DNA from: a virus
Lineage: Duplodnaviria; Caudoviricetes
DNA: 64,000 nt
Direction: 5' to 3' (one strand)
Virus record (IMG/VR): IMGVR_UViG_3300032038_000010
Location: 64,001-128,000 of that record
The notes below the pieces were generated by a model. The model saw only the letters and a list, made by a program, of their open reading frames with translations, searched no databases and was not told where the DNA came from. The translations under genes and the position numbers were made by a program. Shown in pieces: positions 9,405 through 43,091 of the stretch (its first letter is position 1; each line of letters begins with the position of its first letter).

Positions 9405-9761
9405 TTAATAACCTGCTCTTTTTAATATATAACTTAAATCTATTCTTCCCTCATCAGTATACGGAATTGCAATTAGAGTATATCCATGAGCTTTACAGTA
9501 TTCGCGTTTTTTCATATCATTATATTGCTGTTTACGTAATCCATCCCAACCACCAAATTTTGACTTTGGCTCATAATGTTGTATACCTTGATATTCAATT
9601 AAAAAATCAATGTCTCCGTCATCATCAAACACACAAAAATCAAAACGTAGCGGATGCCCAGTAGCAGATACTAAGTCAGGGAAGATATACTCTTCTTGAA
9701 AATCCAATCCCGCATCTTGTAGAATTTCAAAAATTTTAATTTCTCCTCGACTAGCTTTCAT
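9405..9761 (-). CDS. Small PD-(D/E)XK endonuclease-like protein
   Basis: LRFDF...IEYQGIQHY...DMKKREYC motif. Confidence 0.7.
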   Translation of the reverse strand: MKASRGEIKIFEILQDAGLDFQEEYIFPDLVSATGHPLRFDFCVFDDDGDIDFLIEYQGIQHYEPKSKFGGWDGLRKQQYNDMKKREYCKAHGYTLIAIPYTDEGRIDLSYILKRAGY

Positions 9762-18883: not shown

Positions 18884-19783
18884 ATGACTAAAGAAGAATT
18901 TTGTCAACAATATGGATATAGTTTACAAACTTTAAAAACTAGTTTTAATAGAACTAAAGAATCCTTATCGCATAAAGGATACATATTAACAAGGGAGGGA
19001 AGTTGGCCAAATGCCAATTATACTGTAGTTGAAGATAAAAGTTTAATTCCTCCTAAAAAAATTACATTAAGTACACGATTAATTGGACAAAGATTTGGAC
19101 ATTTAACTGTATTAAAAGATACTGGGAAAAGATTTTATCGAAGTATTGTATGGGATTGTGTATGTGATTGCGGAAGACATCATGAAGCAACATCTAATAA
19201 TTTAAGTGGTGGGCATGTTAAAAGTTGTGCTAATATGGATTGTCCTTATAGCAAAACCTATGATGATTTAACTAATCAAAAATTTGGTTTATTAACAGCT
19301 TTATATCCGACAAGTATGAAAGATGGATCTCATATGTACTGGATGTGCAAGTGTGATTGTGGTAATTTAAAAGAAGTATCTTCTAGCTCATTAAAATCTC
19401 ATACAGTACAATCTTGCGGATGTTTAAAACAATCTGTAGGAGAATTAAATATTAAAAAAATTTTAGAACAAAATAATATTAATTTTTGTGAACAATATAC
19501 TTTTGCAGATTTAAAAAATAAAAAACCTTTACGATTTGATTTTGCTATTTTTAAAGACAATCAATTATTTAGACTAGTTGAATTTGATGGTATTCAACAT
19601 TATGAAGAACAAGCATATTTTTCTCATTCACTCGCAGAAATTCAACAAAATGATAAAATAAAGAATGAATATTGTCAACAGCATAATATAATTTTAGTAC
19701 GTATTCCATATTGGGAACGAGACAATATAACTTTAGATATGATAATGGGAGATAAATATATATATGGATCAACAACAAATTGA
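18884..19783 (+). CDS. Free-standing endonuclease (repeated CxCDCG units plus PD-(D/E)XK-like C-terminus)
   Basis: Two FGxLT...CxCDCG...SC units; LRFDF...VEFDGIQHY. Confidence 0.75.
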   Translation: MTKEEFCQQYGYSLQTLKTSFNRTKESLSHKGYILTREGSWPNANYTVVEDKSLIPPKKITLSTRLIGQRFGHLTVLKDTGKRFYRSIVWDCVCDCGRHHEATSNNLSGGHVKSCANMDCPYSKTYDDLTNQKFGLLTALYPTSMKDGSHMYWMCKCDCGNLKEVSSSSLKSHTVQSCGCLKQSVGELNIKKILEQNNINFCEQYTFADLKNKKPLRFDFAIFKDNQLFRLVEFDGIQHYEEQAYFSHSLAEIQQNDKIKNEYCQQHNIILVRIPYWERDNITLDMIMGDKYIYGSTTN

Positions 19784-26941: not shown

Positions 26942-27613
26942 ATGAAATTTGAAAATACAGAAGTAATGAATTTTAAAGGGGCTTTCAGAGGATTGCGTAA
27001 TCCTCTTGAGTCCTGGTCTAAATCAGATAGCTCATTTGATAATGGGATGACCATAATCGGAGAAAAAGACTTGAATCTGGCGCAACGCATGATTAAAGCT
27101 GGATCAAGTGATTCTAAATTTCTTCGACAGATTTTTGTGTCTGTAGACATCACGGGCCCGTTATACTGGCTCAAGTAGCTAGACACTTACAAAGTAGCGA
27201 CTGTTGCTAATAGCACCTCAACGATGCACAAATTAGCGTCCACTCCTATTACAAAAGAATGTTTTGAAATGGGAGATTATAACAATCTTAAAGTATATGA
27301 TAATGAACCATATAAAATTAATGATTATACTGATGATTGTTGGGATGAAATAATTAATATTTGCGAAACACTTCGTCAAAGATACAATGAAACAAAAGAC
27401 CAAAGGTACTGGAAAGAATTAATTCGTATCTTACCAGAGTCTTGGCAACAGACTAGAACTTGGACAAATAATTATGCGGGCCTCCGCAATATTTACTTTC
27501 AAAGAAAAAATCATCGTTTAACTGAATGGTCAAATGATTTTTGCTCTTGGATTAAAACTCTTCCCTATGCAGCAGAATTAATTACATACCAGCCAGAGAA
27601 ATCTACTGATTGA
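26942..27613 (+). CDS. ThyX-like flavin-dependent thymidylate synthase family (TAG at 27176)
   Basis: PLYWLK*LDTYKV...STMHKL...LPESW.Q.RT...R.NHRL.EW; two track ORFs are in frame. Confidence 0.7.
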
Positions 27614-27695
27614 TTTTTTAAAAAACTTTTGCTATAATATTTATAGAAAGTTAAGAAAGAACAGCTATTATTATTTTCTATTAAGGAGAAAACTA

Positions 27696-28625
27696 ATGAG
27701 AAAGAACACAAATCAGGAACAGATTGAAGGAAGAATTTATCAGCATAATCTTCAGGAAAAGATTACTGGAGAAACCAGTAAGCATCCTGGAACACCATTT
27801 ATTGCTGGTACAATTGATGTAGCAACAGATGAACGGGGACTCAATATTCTCACAGTTCATTATACATATGTAACTGAATCTACAAAGAATGGTAATAAGA
27901 ACGCTTCTTATGCAAATCTCAAGAGGATCATTGATAATGGTAAGACTATTACTAATGATGGCATTGAGAACGCATGGAAGGTAAGACTCACGCCTGCAAT
28001 CGCACTGAATGATTTCTACCCACAGGGGCAGGATGATCTCGTATCTCAGCCTCGAAATGAGGGCGGTTTTGTATCTATTATTTCAGAGCTTCATCCAGAG
28101 GGAATCGAGAGAAATAAGTTTACAGCGGATGTCCTTATTAATAAGGTAGACCATGTTGATGCAGATGAAGAGAAGGGTATCACAGAAGATTTCGTTCGTA
28201 TGAACTGTGCGGTATTTAATTTCCGTAATGATATTCTTCCATTTACTTTCGTAGCAAAGAATAAGGATGCTATGAAGTATTTTGAAGGACTTGAACTTCC
28301 TTGCTATACTAAGGTATGGGGCAAGATTGTAAGCTCTACTCAGACTGTTAGACATAAGACTGAATCTGCTTTTGGCGGAGACGCAGTTGATACAACAGAG
28401 AAAAGAGTTCGTGAGTGGGTTGTAACAGGCGCTCAGAAGGAGCCTTATGAGTTCGGAGAAGAGAATGTTATGACCGCTGATGAAGTTAAGGAAGCGCTTG
28501 CAAATCGTAATGTAATGCTTGCTGAAAACAAGAAGAGAAGCGAAGAGTATTACGCAAAGAACGGAGCTACTTCAACATCTTCCAAGACAGATGCGGCAGT
28601 CCCCGCAGGTGGATTTAATTTCTAA
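27696..28625 (+). CDS. Putative single-stranded DNA-binding protein
   Basis: Heads the replication module; flexible tail ending in GGFNF. Confidence 0.5.
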   Translation: MRKNTNQEQIEGRIYQHNLQEKITGETSKHPGTPFIAGTIDVATDERGLNILTVHYTYVTESTKNGNKNASYANLKRIIDNGKTITNDGIENAWKVRLTPAIALNDFYPQGQDDLVSQPRNEGGFVSIISELHPEGIERNKFTADVLINKVDHVDADEEKGITEDFVRMNCAVFNFRNDILPFTFVAKNKDAMKYFEGLELPCYTKVWGKIVSSTQTVRHKTESAFGGDAVDTTEKRVREWVVTGAQKEPYEFGEENVMTADEVKEALANRNVMLAENKKRSEEYYAKNGATSTSSKTDAAVPAGGFNF

Positions 28626-36603: not shown

Positions 36604-37055
36604 AAACTTCATATTTTTATCAAATCAGAAATTTTAAGCCGTGGATGATACCTGTATCTACGGCTTTAAGTGATCCAATTTGGTACCGTCCGCCGCAAGG
36701 AAAAGAATGGTTTGTAGACAAACGAGGAGTAATTAACGGTTTAAAATATAAACCACTTATAGTGCAATATGACTGTAATATGTTATGCCCTATATGCGAA
36801 GAAAAAGATATTTTAAAAGGTAATTGTTTTACAATGCTTGAATATCGTAAGGCTCTTGATACAATAAATAAAGATACTATGTATAAAGCTTTTGAACATT
36901 GTATAAATTATTTTAAATTACCTTTTGATGATAATGAACCTATGATAGTATTAATGGTACATGAGGCTCCACAAAATCCATGTAGTGAACGTATTGCATT
37001 ACAAGATTATTTTAAATGTGAAGAATTAAAATATCCAATTGAAGATAATTATTAA
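36594..37055 (+). CDS. DUF488-like hypothetical protein
   Basis: IKTSYF...P.WY...LMVHE.P..CSER pattern. Confidence 0.45.
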   Translation: MQIKTSYFYQIRNFKPWMIPVSTALSDPIWYRPPQGKEWFVDKRGVINGLKYKPLIVQYDCNMLCPICEEKDILKGNCFTMLEYRKALDTINKDTMYKAFEHCINYFKLPFDDNEPMIVLMVHEAPQNPCSERIALQDYFKCEELKYPIEDNY

Positions 37056-37133
37056 TGAACCACAGTTGTGCTCATTTTTGACTTTTTGAGAAAAAAATGA
37101 TATAATATTTATATAAAATAAAGAGGTATCAAT

Positions 37134-37544
37134 ATGAAAGAAGTAAAAAGAACTGAGCGCGGATGGGCTGGACATTTTTGCTGTTCTAGGGACTGCGCCT
37201 TCCGCAGAAATACTTTGCTTGAGTATAAAAATAAAAAATGGATAATTTCAACAGTAGGTTTACAAATTTGCAGGCATACTATATCGCCCTATTGTAAAGA
37301 AGGTGATGTAATGACCATTGGATACAATCGTTGGTATGAAACAATGGCATTTGAATCCCTTTATAATGAATATGATGACGCGGATGTTACAAAAGAGATT
37401 GAATTTGAAAGTGACTGGGGCATTTGGGGAGAGACATGGGAAGAGGTTATGGAAAAATATAATCAGCATCCTGATCTTGCAGCAAATGAAATGCATGAAA
37501 AAATTGTTGAAGAATTGATGGAGAAAATTAAAAATGAAATATAG
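37134..37544 (+). CDS. Hypothetical protein
   Basis: TTGACT-17-TATAAT promoter; GAGGT SD. Confidence 0.7.
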   Translation: MKEVKRTERGWAGHFCCSRDCAFRRNTLLEYKNKKWIISTVGLQICRHTISPYCKEGDVMTIGYNRWYETMAFESLYNEYDDADVTKEIEFESDWGIWGETWEEVMEKYNQHPDLAANEMHEKIVEELMEKIKNEI

Positions 37545-37725
37545 ATTAGTAGAAGAGAATAAATTAAGACGTTTAATTGAATCTGAGATGATATATAATG
37601 AACTTTGCGCTTGGGGAGTAGATAATTGGACTGGATTTGATGAAGTTAAATTTCCAGATATTGATGATGTTGAAAAAGAGTTAAATAAGTTTGATAAATT
37701 CGAGGAGCGTGATTCTGATGATTAA
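37534..37725 (+). CDS. Small hypothetical protein
   Basis: Overlaps upstream stop; GVDNW motif. Confidence 0.6.
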   Translation: MKYRLVEENKLRRLIESEMIYNELCAWGVDNWTGFDEVKFPDIDDVEKELNKFDKFEERDSDD

Positions 37726-37808
37726 ATCATTATATCCACAATTACAAACATTGGATATACAGGATTTGATGTAAAAAGGAGGTGGTTAAAATAAATACTC
37801 AGGATAGA

Positions 37809-40800
37809 ATGGAAATACACTCTCATACTGAGTATTCCTAATGTCTAACATTAGGTTACTCGATTGTATCAATAAGCCAATAGATCTTGTTAATCGGGCA
37901 ATAGAGATTGGTCTTAAAGGTATAGTAATCACAGACCACGAGACTCTTTCAAGTCATGTTAAATTAAATAAATATCAATTTGAGATTCAGAAAGAACATC
38001 CTGACTTTAAAATTGGATTAGGCAATGAGATTTATCTTACAGATACAAGAGATAAAAATCAAAAATATTATCATTTTATTTTAATTGCAAAAAATAAAGA
38101 AGGATGGAAACAACTTCGTATTTTATCTTCGAGAGCATGGATGCAAAGTTATTATGATCGAGGATTCGAAAGAGTTCCGACTTTGAAATCAGAAATTGAA
38201 GATGTAATATTGAAGAACCCAGGCAATATTATTGCAACTTCAGCTTGTATCGGCGGAGAGTTATCATCTTCAGTCTTAGCGATGGAAAAGGCTAGACAAG
38301 TTGGAGATATAGCGGGAACCGCCGCAGCTTATAATCAAATTACATCATTTATTGAGTGGTGTTTAAAAGTATTTGGTGAGGACTTTTTCATCGAATGTGC
38401 TCCTAGCGCAAGTAAAGACCAAATTATTGTAAATAAAAAACTTGCAGATATAGCAAAAGTATATGGAATCAAAATGGTAATTGGTTCTGACGCTCATTAC
38501 CTTAAAAAAGAAGATAGATTTGTTCATAAAGCATATCTTAATTCAAAAGGTGGCGAACGTGAAGTAGATAGTTTCTATGAATATGCTTATCTTCAAGATG
38601 AAAATGATATTATCGCAAATTTGACTCCATCTATTGTTGACCAATATAATATTATGTGTCAGAATAGTATGGAAATATATGATAAAATTGAAGTTTATGA
38701 TATTTTACATAATCAAGTTATTCCAAGAGTAGAAGTAAAAGATTATCCTAAGAAAGATATTAAAGATGACAAGCATCCAATTTTATCTGATATGTATAAG
38801 AGTGATAATCAATATGAAAGATATTGGATTAATGAGTGTGCGGCCGCCCTCCGTCAGAAAAGACTGGATTCGAAGTCAGAATACTGGGATCGTCTTGAAG
38901 AAGAAGCAGATATAAAAAGAACGGTAGGAGAGAAACTGGGAACAAATATGTTTTCATATCCTATTACACTCCAGCATTATGTTGATTTATTCTGGGAGTG
39001 TGGATCTCTCGTAGGTGCGGGCCGCGGTTCTAGCTGTTCAGGATTAAATCATTATCTTCTAGGTATCACTCAGCTTGATCCAATCCAGTGGAATCTTCCG
39101 TTCTGGAGATTAGAACTTTAAGAAATAGTCTCCCTTCATTGTGAAATGAAGTATAAAAAATTTTGTGAACTCTATTACTCAGAGGTGTGAAAAGAACGTA
39201 TAGTTTTAGTAGGAAATGACTGATTAATCTTTTTGCTAACCGGGAAGCCTGAGCGGTATGGCCGCAGGTAATCCAGTGCCAAGACTAGAAATAGTAAGGT
39301 GTAACGACTATCCGAAAGGAGTAGGGTGGAAGTTGAGTTACCATCCGAAGTGCAAAAATCTTTAAATATTTTCTGCCACATTGGACAAAACGGTAGAATT
39401 TAGTAATCTCAAAAATCATATTATAATAGAAAATATGAAAGGAGATTACTAGCATGTTAATCTACAAAATAACAAATAAAATAAATGGAAAATGTTATAT
39501 TGGTCAAACAATTAAATCTGCTGAACAACGATGGAAAAAACATCAATCTCATGCTTTTGGTACTCATCCAAATGATATAAATAAAACTTTATATCAAGCG
39601 ATAAGAAAATATGGATTAGAAAATTTCACTTTTGAAGTAGTGCAAGACAATATTGAGACTTTCGAGCAATTAGATAAAGCAGAAATATATTGGATTGATT
39701 ATTATAATAGTTTTGTAAAAGGATACAATGAAACGTTTGGAGGGCAACAATATCATCAAATACTTCCAAACAAAGAAATAATTCAAGATTATTACAAAAC
39801 TAGAAGCGCAAGAAAAACAGCTTTAAATTTTGGAATTGATCATTCTACTGTAGATGATATTTTAAATCAAAATAATATTCCAAGATTTACTTTTAGACAA
39901 GCAGCTGGTCAAAGAATAAAAATTTCAAAAGATGGTTTTGAGAAAGAATTTGATTCAGTTAAAGATTGCGCTGAATGGTTTGTTAATAATAAAATTTGCA
40001 AAACTGATAAAGTAGAAAGCGCTAGAGCAGGATTAAAAACTGCTCGCAGCGAAAAAGGTAATGGTTTCTACTATGGTTATTTTATAGAAAATATTTAAAG
40101 AATAAGATATAGTCTGTGCCATTAGAAATAATGGATAACACGATTTAAACAAAGATCGAATCGAATTAGGTGATATTGATATTGATATTTGTCCAAGCAA
40201 AAAAGGCATCATTCTTAAAAAGATTAAAGAAGAACGCGGACAAAAATTTAATTCAGATGTAGATGAACTTTCAAGGGAAAATCTTGGATGTGTATTAGTT
40301 GCAACTTTTGGTACAGAAGGGACTCGTTCTACTATCTTAACGGCCTGCCGCGGATATAGAAGTGAAGAATATCCAGATGGAATTGATGTAGACACAGCAC
40401 AGTTTTTAGCATCATTAGTTCCACAGGAAAGAGGATTTTCTTGGAGTCTTTCTGATGTAGTTTATGGTAATAAAGAAAAAGATAGACAAGCATCTGACTT
40501 GTTTATTAATGAAGTAAATCAATATCCAGGACTTCTTAATATTATGATGGCTATTGAAGGTCTAGTAAATAAAAGAAGTAGTCATGCATCTGGTGTTATC
40601 TTCATGGATGAAGATCCATATGAATTTGGTTCATTTATGAGAACACCAAAGGGTGAAGTAATCACAGCATTTGATTTGCATGATTGTGAAGCTATTGGTA
40701 TGACAAAGTATGATTTTCTTGTAACTGAAGTTCAGGATAAATTAGTTCAAACAATTAAGTTCTTACAGGAATATGGAGAAATTGAAAAAGATTTATCATT

Positions 40801-42787
40801 AAGAGAGATATATGATAAATATTTTCATCCAAATGTAATTCCTATTGATGATAAGCAGACATGGGAAAATATTAAGAATGGAACAATATTAAATATTTTC
40901 CAGTTTGACAGTGAAGTTGGTAGCCAAGCCGCAAAGAAAATTCAACCTAGCACAATTTTGGAGTTGGCAGATGCTAATGGTCTTATGCGTCTTATGACAT
41001 CTGAAAAGGGCGCAGAAACTCCTATGGAAAAATATATAAGATTTAAAAATAATCTTGATTTGTGGTATAGAGAAATGAATAATGCAGGACTCACAAAAGA
41101 AGAACAAAAAGTCCTTGAACCATACTTTAAAAAATCTTATGGAGTGCCGCCTTCACAAGAGCAATTAATGATGATGTTAATGGATAAAGATATTTGTAAT
41201 TTTAGTCTTAAAGACGCAAATGCGGCAAGAAAAATTGTCGGGAAGAAACAAATGTCTAAAATCCCAGCTCTAAAAGAACAAGTATTAGCGCAAGCATCTT
41301 CTCCAGCATTAGGACAATATGTATGGAAATGTGGAATCGGCCCTCAGATGGGTTATTCATTTAGTATTATTCACGCTCTTGCCTATTCATTTATAGGCTA
41401 TCAGACCGCGTATATTGCAACAAGATGGAATCCAATTTATTGGGATACTGCATGCCTTATTGTTAATAGCGGCAGCCTTGAAAATGATGATATGGAATAT
41501 GAAGAAGATGAAGATGGTGACATCATTGGAGCAGCTAAGAAAAAAGAGTCTGCAACTGATTATTCAAAATTAGCAAAAGCATTAGGTGAAATTATTGGTG
41601 CTGGTATCAATGTTAGTTTGATTGATATTAATAAATCTTCATATGGATTTGAACCTGATATTGACAATAATCAAATTTTGTTTGGTATGAAGGCATTAAG
41701 TAATATTGGAGCGCCAATTATTGAAAAGATTATTGAAAATAGACCATATAATAATTTCAAAGAATTTTTAAGAAAATGCCCATTAAATAAAACTGCAATA
41801 ATTAGTTTGATTAAAAGTGGGGCATTTGACAAACTTGAAGATAGTGTTGCTCAAAAGATGAATATTGAGCCACGGAAATTAATTATGGCATATTATTTAT
41901 CTATTGCGAGTGAACCAAAAGCTAAATTAACATTACAGAATTTTAATGGATTAATTGAAAAAGGTTTAATTCCAAAAGAATTAGATTTTGAAAAAAATAC
42001 TTTTATTCTTAACAAGATTTTGAAAAAGAATAAAATAAAAGAGTATTATAATGTAACTCCAGCAAATATTGATATTAATAAATTAATTGAATACTTTGGA
42101 GATATATTTGAAGTAATCAATAATCAATATTTAGTAAATCAAAAAACTTGGGATAAAGTATATAAAAATGTGATGGACAAAGCTAGAGATTGGCTTAAAC
42201 AAAATCAAAACGAAGTATTAAATCAATATAATACAATTTTGTTTAAAGAAACATGGAATAAATATGCTTCTGGTACAATTTCAGCATGGGAAATGGAAGC
42301 ATTATGTTTTTATTATCATGACCATGAACTACAAAATATTGATACTGCTAAATATGGAGTTATAGATTTTAGTAACTTATCAACTAATCCTGTGATAGAT
42401 AGAACTTTCAAAAGAAATGGAAAAGAAATTCCGTTGTATAAATTAACTAGAATTGCAGGAACAGTAATTAGTAAAAATGATGCAAGACATTCTGTAGCTT
42501 TATTGACAACATCAGGAGTGGTAAATGTAAAATTTACAAAAGACTATTATGCACTTTATGGGCGGCAGCTTAGTCAAGTACAACCTGATGGAACTAAAAA
42601 AGTTATGGAAAAAGGTTGGTTTGTTCGTGGAACTAAATTATTAATAACAGGATACCGCCGCGATGATACATTTGTATCAAAAAATTACAAATCTAACGGT
42701 GGGCATCAGTTATATAAAATTCTTAACGTCGAAGGTAAAAATATAATAATTACGCATAACAGATGGGGACAAACAGATAATGACTAA
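37809..42787 (+). CDS. dnaE: DNA polymerase III alpha (DnaE-type): 5' piece 37809-37838, exon 37841-39110, exon 40143-42787
   Basis: PHP motifs HSHTEY, TDHE, SDAHY; GAGRGS; splice restores FWR|YLNKDR..GDIDID; HASG; GYSFS..HA. Confidence 0.9.
39111..40142 (+). mobile_element. Group I intron in dnaE
   Basis: Exon GGAGAU pairs with IGS GUCUCC; GCTAACCGGGAA, AATCCAGTG, GTAACGACTA, AAGATATAGTC; terminal G. Confidence 0.9.
39454..40098 (+). CDS. Intron-encoded GIY-YIG homing endonuclease
   Basis: IYKITN...YIGQT...RW..H...GYN. Confidence 0.9.
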   Translation: MLIYKITNKINGKCYIGQTIKSAEQRWKKHQSHAFGTHPNDINKTLYQAIRKYGLENFTFEVVQDNIETFEQLDKAEIYWIDYYNSFVKGYNETFGGQQYHQILPNKEIIQDYYKTRSARKTALNFGIDHSTVDDILNQNNIPRFTFRQAAGQRIKISKDGFEKEFDSVKDCAEWFVNNKICKTDKVESARAGLKTARSEKGNGFYYGYFIENI

Positions 42788-43091
42788 TAACGTAAATCAT
42801 CCTTCACATTATGAAGGTAACACTTCTATTGAATGTATTGATGCTATGCGGCTTGGTCTTGGCGACCAAGCTGTATATGATTTTTGTTTATGCAACGCAT
42901 TTAAATATATGTGGCGATACAAAAATAAGAACGGAGCTGAAGATTTAGATAAGGCTGAATGGTATATTAAAGAAGCCAAGAAAATCAATATTGACTTATT
43001 TAATCAGCCGCTTTTTTCACAGTCTGATAAGCAGCTTGGCTCTTTCACTAGCGTATTGACAGAGATTCGAAACAAGGACAAAAATAATTAA
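42780..43091 (+). CDS. DUF3310 family protein (T7 gp1.7-like)
   Basis: VNHPSHY...IECID...NAFKY.WR..K...EDL.KA.WY. Confidence 0.8.
   Translation: MTNNVNHPSHYEGNTSIECIDAMRLGLGDQAVYDFCLCNAFKYMWRYKNKNGAEDLDKAEWYIKEAKKINIDLFNQPLFSQSDKQLGSFTSVLTEIRNKDKNN

Follow-up and report, generated by a model that had tools for sequence, protein, structure and literature searches.

Stop-first gaps at one codon junction of phage dnaE genes: candidate homing-endonuclease scars with a proposed decoding by ribosomal hopping

The dnaE/yorL-like gene for the DNA polymerase III alpha subunit in a phage contig of the Caudoviricetes (IMG/VR record IMGVR_UViG_3300032038_000010, 136,945 bp) is interrupted by eight nucleotides (nt) that separate the HxH residues of PHP motif I from the remainder of their own domain. 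We analysed this interruption in a 64,000-nt stretch of the record (positions 64,001 to 128,000), hereafter called the window, whose own numbering is used throughout. The feature is real, recurs at the same site in related phages and is linked to endonuclease genes. Its best explanation, in which we place moderate confidence, is that the window insert represents a 'hit-and-run' endonuclease-immunity indel, which ribosomes cross in a short hop that starts on TCC and lands on TCT.

At the junction, an upstream mini-frame reading ..DRMEIHSHTEYS ends with a Ser codon that is followed directly by TAA, and the main frame, which translates as MSNIRLLDCINKP.. from its overlapping ATG, lies 8 nt out of register (Table 1). 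Deletion of the 8 nt yields HSHTEYSNIRLLD, with the spacing found in YorL of phage SPbeta (N-terminus M-IGCHCHTDRSNIRLLD; 39–40% identity to the window protein) and in more than 180 contiguous relatives. Moreover, the uninterrupted relatives L181 and L190 share the mini-frame sequence RMEIHSHTEYS as an identical N-terminus. The initial annotation, made from the sequence without database searches, had proposed that the 8 nt break an otherwise intact PHP motif and are bypassed by the ribosome; the contiguous homologues set the exact spacing and confirm the interruption as genuine, and all elements then described (codons, stop, ATG, stem and Shine-Dalgarno (SD)-like sites) are present where it had placed them. 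The mini-frame is open back to position 37770 and is preceded by AGGAGG (37777–37782) and AGGA (37801–37804); no SD-like sequence was seen before ATG 37841. The two Ser codons flanking the offset are synonymous. An exact 26-mer scan of viral contigs, with the window's own record excluded, returned no other copy.

The main frame matches Pfam PHP (8.5e-23) and DNA_pol3_alpha. Since the PHP match begins only at profile position 7, the HxH motif is absent from this frame; it is supplied by the mini-frame. In the window protein, whose closest solved structure is Taq DnaE (2hpi), the residues H33, E63, H78, C136, D217 and H219 are intact; none of these positions varies in the family alignment, and on the basis of known DnaE structures we interpret them as the downstream PHP metal ligands. 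DnaE is also the sole polymerase family found in the 137-kb record. Because there is no other replicative polymerase and none of the PHP metal ligands has been lost, the phage must still produce this polymerase at full length.

Table 1. Features of the interrupted dnaE gene in the window, and interrupted alleles of related phages.
Feature	Position	Strand	Sequence or remark
Upstream mini-frame, reading from ATG	ATG 37809; TCC 37836-38; TAA 37839-41	+	GAA ATA CAC TCT CAT ACT GAG TAT between ATG and TCC; MEIHSHTEYS*
5' mini-frame of dnaE, PHP motif I (HxH)	37782..37838	+	(V)VKINTQDRMEIHSHTEYS; start uncertain: GTG 37782, ATA 37791 or ATG 37809, all in frame
SD-like sequence before mini-frame	37775..37782	+	AAAGGAGG; read from sequence; in relatives with the cassette, this position follows the stop of the endonuclease gene
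Stub, probably the 3' end of a free-standing homing-endonuclease gene since deleted	37721..37774	+	..IKSLYPQLQTLDIQDLM, TAA 37772-74
Proposed take-off codon	37836..37838	+	TCC (Ser), last sense codon ahead of TAA
8-nt coding gap	37839..37846	+	TAATGTCT; TAA 37839-41, ATG 37841-43, landing codon TCT 37844-46
Start of main frame	ATG 37841-43; TCT 37844-46; AAC 37847	+	ATG overlaps TAA (TAATG); AAC followed by ATT AGG TTA CTC GAT
Perfect 8-bp hairpin	37837..37855	+	CCTAATGT-cta-ACATTAGG; arms 37837-44 and 37848-55, loop CTA
Main 5' frame of dnaE/yorL-like Pol III alpha	37841..39121	+	PHP domain without motif I, start of NTPase domain
Intervening sequence inside dnaE, about 1 kb	39122..40138	+	between ..NLPFWR and ..GDIDIDI..
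GIY-YIG endonuclease open reading frame in intervening sequence	39454-40098		Pfam GIY-YIG 4e-9
3' dnaE	40139..42787	+	rest of NTPase domain, fingers, HhH; Pfam DNA_pol3_finger, HHH_6, DNA_pol3_alpha
Class b allele, window			TCC TAATGTCT AAC
Class b allele, L071 and L102			TCC TGATGTCT
Class b allele, L084			TCC TGATGTCA
Class b allele, L215			TCT TAGTGTCT
Class b allele, L005			TCT TAGTCT
Class b allele, L022			TCT TAAATTT
Class b allele, L200			TCT TAGGTATCT
Class a alleles, L035, L036, L058, L069, L120, L168, L221, L307	about 60 nt into dnaE (e.g. L035:520-545)		

The junction was compared in about 205 related dnaE genes from viral, metagenome and metagenome-assembled genome collections. The sequence HxHTxYS-N(I/L)RLLD is contiguous in 182 of them by regular expression and in 10 more that this pattern missed, and two classes of interrupted alleles (a and b) occur within the set. 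In class b, which includes the window, 6–9 nt are placed right after the Ser codon of HxHTxYS. Within an unbiased set, homology-derived and de-duplicated, 8 of about 150 dnaE genes carry inserts of this length at the same junction, all of them stop-first, and each of the seven distinct inserts opens with a stop triplet (chance probability approximately 5e-10). Further alleles were obtained by searches with the nuclease gene that adjoins class b alleles (see below) and with a degenerate DNA pattern that demanded T-R-R after the Ser codon. These searches added a 5-nt allele (L226, TCC TAACC AAC), the 7-nt allele from another sample and 23 further hits, the newly added inserts including TAACC, TAGGTCT, TAACTCT, TAGTGCT, TAAACT, TAGGTGTCA and TAGGTAAGTCC. 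This brings the total to about 14 distinct inserts of 5–11 nt that cover all three frames, nearly every one with a Ser-like NCY codon at its end. A Ser TCY codon immediately precedes the gap in 21 of 21 interrupted relatives, and the landing codon is TCN or xCY in 18 of the 21. The landing codons found before AAY are TCT, TCA, TCC, ACC, ACT, GCT and TTT, each of which can pair at two or more positions with tRNA-Ser; in the TAGGTAAGTCC allele (TCC..TCC) take-off and landing codons co-vary. The arrangement noticed in the window, a take-off Ser codon with an adjacent stop and a Ser codon downstream, thus recurs in independent relatives over gaps of 5–11 nt, and the conservation check in related dnaE genes that the initial annotation had recommended finds stop-first inserts at the same junction. 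Interrupted alleles are dispersed over a tree of 149 de-duplicated sequences; their 14 rows require 13 state changes, and most of their nearest neighbours are uninterrupted. A single inherited 8-nt insert in L071, L084 and L102 was considered and rejected, because these alleles are interspersed with contiguous ones on the tree.

The insert-bearing genes are under purifying selection. The clade carrying the TAACC insert comprises at least five lineages of 89–94% nucleotide identity and has kept the insert in all of them; synonymous exceed nonsynonymous changes by about 4:1 in its main frame, and its 15-codon mini-frame has three synonymous and no nonsynonymous changes. No ATG, GTG or TTG occurs in the downstream frame of this clade within 60 codons, and such a codon is absent from the vicinity of the junction in 9 of the 21 interrupted alleles. 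Taken together with the intact PHP ligands, selection in this start-less clade and the start-less alleles imply that the mini-frame is needed and is joined to the body of the protein. The synonymous-only differences among L071, L084 and L102 had also been considered as a sign of mini-frame selection; they were dropped because recombination is possible, and the TAACC clade was used instead.

These observations also bear on the explanation that the gene is non-functional, the insert being an indel that inactivates it in a phage that is defective or in decay, or in one replicated by a helper or host polymerase, and that the polymerase is not produced at full length. In its favour, the metagenomic record is linear, with an estimated completeness of 89%, the interrupted alleles are mostly singletons on the tree, and the window dnaE is interrupted a second time by an endonuclease-bearing segment without a recognisable group I intron (an Rfam search of 37000–43000 gave no RNA element at the gap and no group I intron match in the approximately 1-kb intervening sequence at E <= 0.1). 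However, about 1,300 codons are free of other stops or frameshifts, the mini-frame does not differ from its counterpart in uninterrupted relatives, clades with an insert have persisted under purifying selection, and no second polymerase was found in the genome. Random indels, moreover, would not all be stop-first, NCY-ending and located at one junction. We therefore regard a dead gene as unlikely.

The origin of the gap is probably explained by a homing-endonuclease cassette, which the initial annotation had missed. In class b a nuclease-like gene, different from the one associated with class a, ends 33–50 nt upstream of dnaE. Its product matches phrog_374 (1e-48), phrog_559 (1e-33) and phrog_9084, the last annotated as 'homing endonuclease', shows a weak match to DUF2726 and contains CxCxCG repeats. 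By non-redundant counts, a gene of the phrog_374/559/9084 type is adjacent in 5 of 8 class b alleles vs none of 135 contiguous ones (Fisher p = 1.2e-7), and about half of the alleles added by the nuclease-gene and pattern searches have no adjacent nuclease. Of the about 14 distinct inserts overall, roughly half have a free-standing homing-endonuclease gene immediately upstream. An intact endonuclease upstream of the window dnaE was not found by tblastn, the upstream open reading frames (ORFs) being unrelated. One of these, a 63-amino-acid ORF at 37534–37725, resembles the T7 gp5.9 RecBCD inhibitor (Pfam PF25708, 3e-4, below cut-off; phrog_6234). The only endonuclease trace directly upstream of the window dnaE is a stub of about 50 nt, positions 37721–37774 of which align to the 3' ends of the L226, L071 and L102 endonuclease genes (local alignment, 1000 shuffles, p = 0.004–0.008). 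Its frame parallels the C-terminus of the L071 endonuclease (..IPLIRIPYTKLGTLNLQDLML*), reading ..YPQLQTLDIQDLM* where L071 has ..PYTKLGTLNLQDLML*, so that it is probably an endonuclease remnant; L084 holds a similar 3' stub. Because the insert is kept and the nuclease is reduced to this stub, the window is read as a 'hit-and-run' case. Four paralogues of the class b nuclease (36–42% identity) are encoded elsewhere in the genome, at 19082–19738 (plus strand) and 9423–9761 (minus strand) of the window and at G000:C1:63356-64186 (minus strand) and 27473-28198 (plus strand); one of the four has an in-frame TAG.

According to the scenario that we propose, TAATGTCT would be what survives, as one half, of a mobile cassette with a homing endonuclease. 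In the relatives, dnaE has a free-standing endonuclease gene inserted just ahead of it, and the short insert sits in the presumed endonuclease target, which is the Tyr-Ser|Asn junction conserved in PHP motif I. By analogy to T4 MobA and gene 60, the broken target would shield the carrier genome from cleavage, which would give the insert a role in immunity. That the endonuclease cuts insert-free alleles and that the insert blocks cutting is suggested by the linkage and by the polyphyletic distribution of the alleles. In the window the endonuclease gene would subsequently have been deleted, leaving the stub and the insert behind.

The sister alleles of class a follow a related pattern. Here, one extra T creates TTA CTT TGA C/T, the exact prfB +1 heptamer, and a +1 slip at this site restores ..NIRLL-D... 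Two of the carriers, L035 and L036, are the closest relatives of the window (76% amino acid identity); the window itself has TTA CTC GAT at this position and thus lacks the heptamer. In class a an HNH gene (Pfam HNH above cut-off; phrog_1035) ends approximately 45 nt before the HxH codons, and by non-redundant counts it is adjacent in 6 of 7 class a vs 1 of 135 contiguous alleles (Fisher p = 4.8e-9). Recoding of endonuclease-linked indels hence appears to be the rule in dnaE of these phages. The pairing of nuclease type with indel type is clean except in the L350:10743 region (minus strand), where a 7-nt insert (TCT TAGTGCT AAT) adjoins an HNH-type endonuclease.

As to how the window allele is decoded, we propose a hop: a ribosome holding peptidyl-tRNA-Ser on TCC, with TAA in its A site, would detach, slide over 8 nt, re-pair on TCT and resume at AAC, and the product would read ..IHSHTEYS-NIRLLD.. 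without an added residue. A programmed frameshift, which the initial annotation had listed as an alternative, would have to occur within 37832–37841, since TGA 37829–37831 shuts the downstream frame on the 5' side. Such a -1 (or +2) shift, with ..HTEYS-LM-SNIR.. or a similar product, would agree with the 8-nt offset, which equals -1, and with the stop and downstream hairpin, which resemble frameshift stimulators. However, this segment lacks a slippery heptamer of the type X XXY YYZ, tRNA-Ser on TCC is unable to re-pair on TTC or CTA, and the gaps of 5, 6, 7, 9 and 11 nt in relatives would need differing shifts or readthrough. A shift would also add two to three residues to a motif that is fixed in length in all but one relative, and we consider it very improbable. 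The exceptional relative (L209:1501-1600) is uninterrupted, its motif being naturally longer by one inserted residue (HSHTDKGSNIR), and the motif spacing is therefore not absolutely fixed.

The main rival for the window is termination followed by reinitiation: translation of the mini-frame would end at TAA and restart on ATG 37841, producing a polymerase MSNIRLLD.. without HxH, and the HxH peptide of 10–19 amino acids would be either discarded or joined non-covalently as strand beta-1 of the PHP barrel. TAATG is a classical coupled stop-start, and ATG 37841, which has no SD sequence and is buried in a stem, would be usable only by ribosomes coming from the mini-frame. A start codon kept just before the landing codon is predicted by reinitiation and not required by hopping. 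In L071, L102 and L084, which read TGA as Trp, as shown by in-frame TGA at the conserved W of the nuclease 'ARW.C.CDCG' repeats, the mini-frame continues to a TAA 10 nt past the ATG, a distance that permits back-scanning; the insert is thus also found under a different genetic code, where its TGA is no stop and nothing remains for a stop-hop to cross. In L071 the in-frame TGA codons lie at L071:621, 822 and 1008 and at dnaE codons 498, 638, 792, 826 and 831 (five in dnaE). On the other hand, none of the family members examined lacks HxH and the other PHP ligands are intact, so that a protein without HxH is expected to be impaired. A usable start codon is missing in the nine start-less alleles, inserts in which indels of 1–2 nt destroy the ATG or GTG (TAGGTCT, TAGTGCT, TAGGTATCT) still persist, and the mini-frame is under purifying selection in the TAACC clade. 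Reinitiation, which the initial annotation had likewise named, is favoured by the 8-nt alleles and disfavoured by the start-less ones; for the window we consider it possible, though on balance doubtful. Because a take-off Ser codon, a stop and a landing codon recur in all three frames and 9 of 21 alleles are start-less, hopping rather than frameshifting or reinitiation is favoured as the family-wide mechanism. Judged from the sequences, only a mechanism independent of frame, such as hopping, fits the whole allele series, and in the window allele hop and reinitiation could operate together.

In the window, the stop and the ATG lie within the perfect hairpin, as does part of the landing codon. 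The minimum free energy of the hairpin is -7.8 kcal/mol (z = -3.2; 1.5% of shuffles as low); among 135 uninterrupted relatives, the lowest value for the corresponding 35-nt segment is higher, at -6.9. Strong stems also occur in L200, L005 and L071, and a weaker one in L215. As a signal common to the family the hairpin was rejected, since it is missing from most of the relatives' alleles, and the link between hairpin and bypassing drawn in the initial annotation does not extend beyond a few of them. In the window allele the stop-containing hairpin may aid take-off, although the family as a whole does not depend on it; it may enhance the hop in this allele alone or record how the insert came about. 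A further explanation is that the insert is an assembly or amplification artefact, a template-switch chimera holding an inverted copy of the adjacent 8 nt; in favour of this, CCTAATGT and ACATTAGG, which follows 3 nt further on, are exact reverse complements. However, a second public assembly (ENA MEGAHIT contig ERZ27256903 k141_2215747, 136,689 bp), which may share the source sample, is identical over 4,281 bp including the insert. Near-identical inserts (TGATGTCT, also with a final A, and TAGTGTCT) lie at the same junction in unrelated samples without such complementarity, and the window insert is linked to the endonuclease stub. An artefact, also raised in the initial annotation, is therefore the least probable of the explanations considered here.

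Several points weigh against a hop in the window. Its two Ser codons, TCC and TCT, are not identical, and in L071, L102 and L084 (TCC TGA TG TCT) no stop follows the take-off codon. An ATG or GTG directly ahead of the landing codon is retained in all five 8-nt alleles (window, L071, L102, L084, L215) and in the 9-nt allele L361. Conservation of the hairpin is lacking, as it is strong in only 4–5 of about 20 alleles, with z near 0 in most. For the alleles found with the degenerate pattern, the stop-first rule is partly built into the search. Finally, short stop-hops in E. coli constructs are said to occur at about 1%, a figure that the 2016 review by Atkins does not give.

Reassignment of stop codons was also considered as an explanation and rejected, because TAA is not reassigned and a reassignment cannot mend an 8-nt offset. 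Neither a suppressor nor a Ser tRNA was found by aragorn among the 13 tRNAs of the phage. The phage is nevertheless amber-recoded, with TAG as a sense codon in its late genes. Just upstream of the window, on the minus strand of G000:C1:34100-60468, ORFs of 3150, 1616, 882 and 689 codons need TAG as a sense codon; they contain 20–23 in-frame TAGs each, and dnaE and its neighbours contain none. Within dnaE, homology of the 5' frame runs out near 39109, and the frame resumes after the intervening sequence with ..GDIDIDI.. from 40139.

To our knowledge, T4 gene 60 and one yeast mitochondrial genome are essentially the only known natural cases of efficient translational bypassing, and a literature search for stop-first gaps in dnaE found no description of them. 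The 5–11 nt inserts would then be the first natural, selected 'stop-hop' bypass elements, minimal gaps in coding sequence that were left as scars or immunity marks when homing endonucleases attacked the dnaE PHP motif and that are crossed by tRNA-Ser hopping without the elaborate signals of gene 60, a proposition that we regard as evenly poised. Dozens of natural variants at a single codon junction, differing in gap length, stop, landing codon and presence of a hairpin and spread over three genetic codes, constitute a ready-made mutational series on the minimal needs of the ribosome for hopping. The case would also give wider scope to the view that mobile cassettes combine homing endonucleases with recoding signals and, if true, would mean together with the CTT TGA C alleles that selfish nucleases repeatedly push essential phage genes into translational recoding. 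Gene callers start such polymerases at MSNIRLL.. or label them as pseudogenes, and phage annotation and 'defective phage' calls are affected accordingly.

Among known systems, TAATG/TGATG coupling has the identical motif and a downstream start that depends on upstream translation; it differs in that it normally joins two complete genes, whereas here it would sever a catalytic motif from its own domain. With the RF2 gene prfB (CUU UGA C) the likeness is confined to the class a alleles, in which CTT TGA C/T follows the gap site of the window at a distance of 15 nt. At that position the window itself reads CTC GAT and does not use this mechanism, and the class a alleles lack the upstream SD stimulator and are tied to an HNH endonuclease, not to RF2 autoregulation. 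The byps of Magnusiomyces capitatus are likewise numerous short mobile inserts that are skipped by means of matched codons and an unreadable A-site codon, but they are 27–55 nt long, GC-rich and mitochondrial and are not known to have an endonuclease link. According to the 2016 Atkins review (PMC5009743), stop-hops had been demonstrated in synthetic constructs, and natural examples, in-frame ones included, were unknown; as summarised there, Weiss et al. (1987) described E. coli hops between matched codons flanking a stop. These share with the dnaE alleles the short hop of a peptidyl-tRNA over a stop, TCT TAG TCT of L005 being the exact design. They differ in being engineered, and the proposed hop of the window is +8 and out of frame.

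The bypass of T4 gene 60 reportedly lies within a MobA homing-endonuclease cassette, as Bonocora et al. are said to have described in 2011. The dnaE alleles differ from gene 60 in several respects. Their gap is 5–11 nt long (8 in the window) instead of 50 nt and has no room for an internal SD sequence or 3' structures, the nascent peptide comprises only about 10–19 residues, the hairpin is not conserved, and the codons are Ser TCC/TCT in the window instead of Gly GGA. The host gene (dnaE, at PHP motif I), the nuclease family and the phages (SPbeta-related, of gut Bacillota type) are different as well, and the dnaE hop is predicted from sequence. In common with gene 60, a non-coding insert lies in an essential gene of DNA metabolism beside a free-standing homing endonuclease, reduced to a probable stub in the window, and a take-off codon is followed by an immediate stop and a matched landing codon, with a stem-loop around the stop in the window allele. 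In T4, nuclease and bypass insert form a mobile cassette (PMC5009743; 10.1101/2022.08.31.505936), for which repeated insertions and 'hit and run' cases have been described (Manning and Atkins, 2022, preprint; 10.1101/2022.08.31.505936). The dnaE junction shows the same combination of repeated insertion at one site and of probable 'hit and run' alleles that keep the gap and lose the nuclease.

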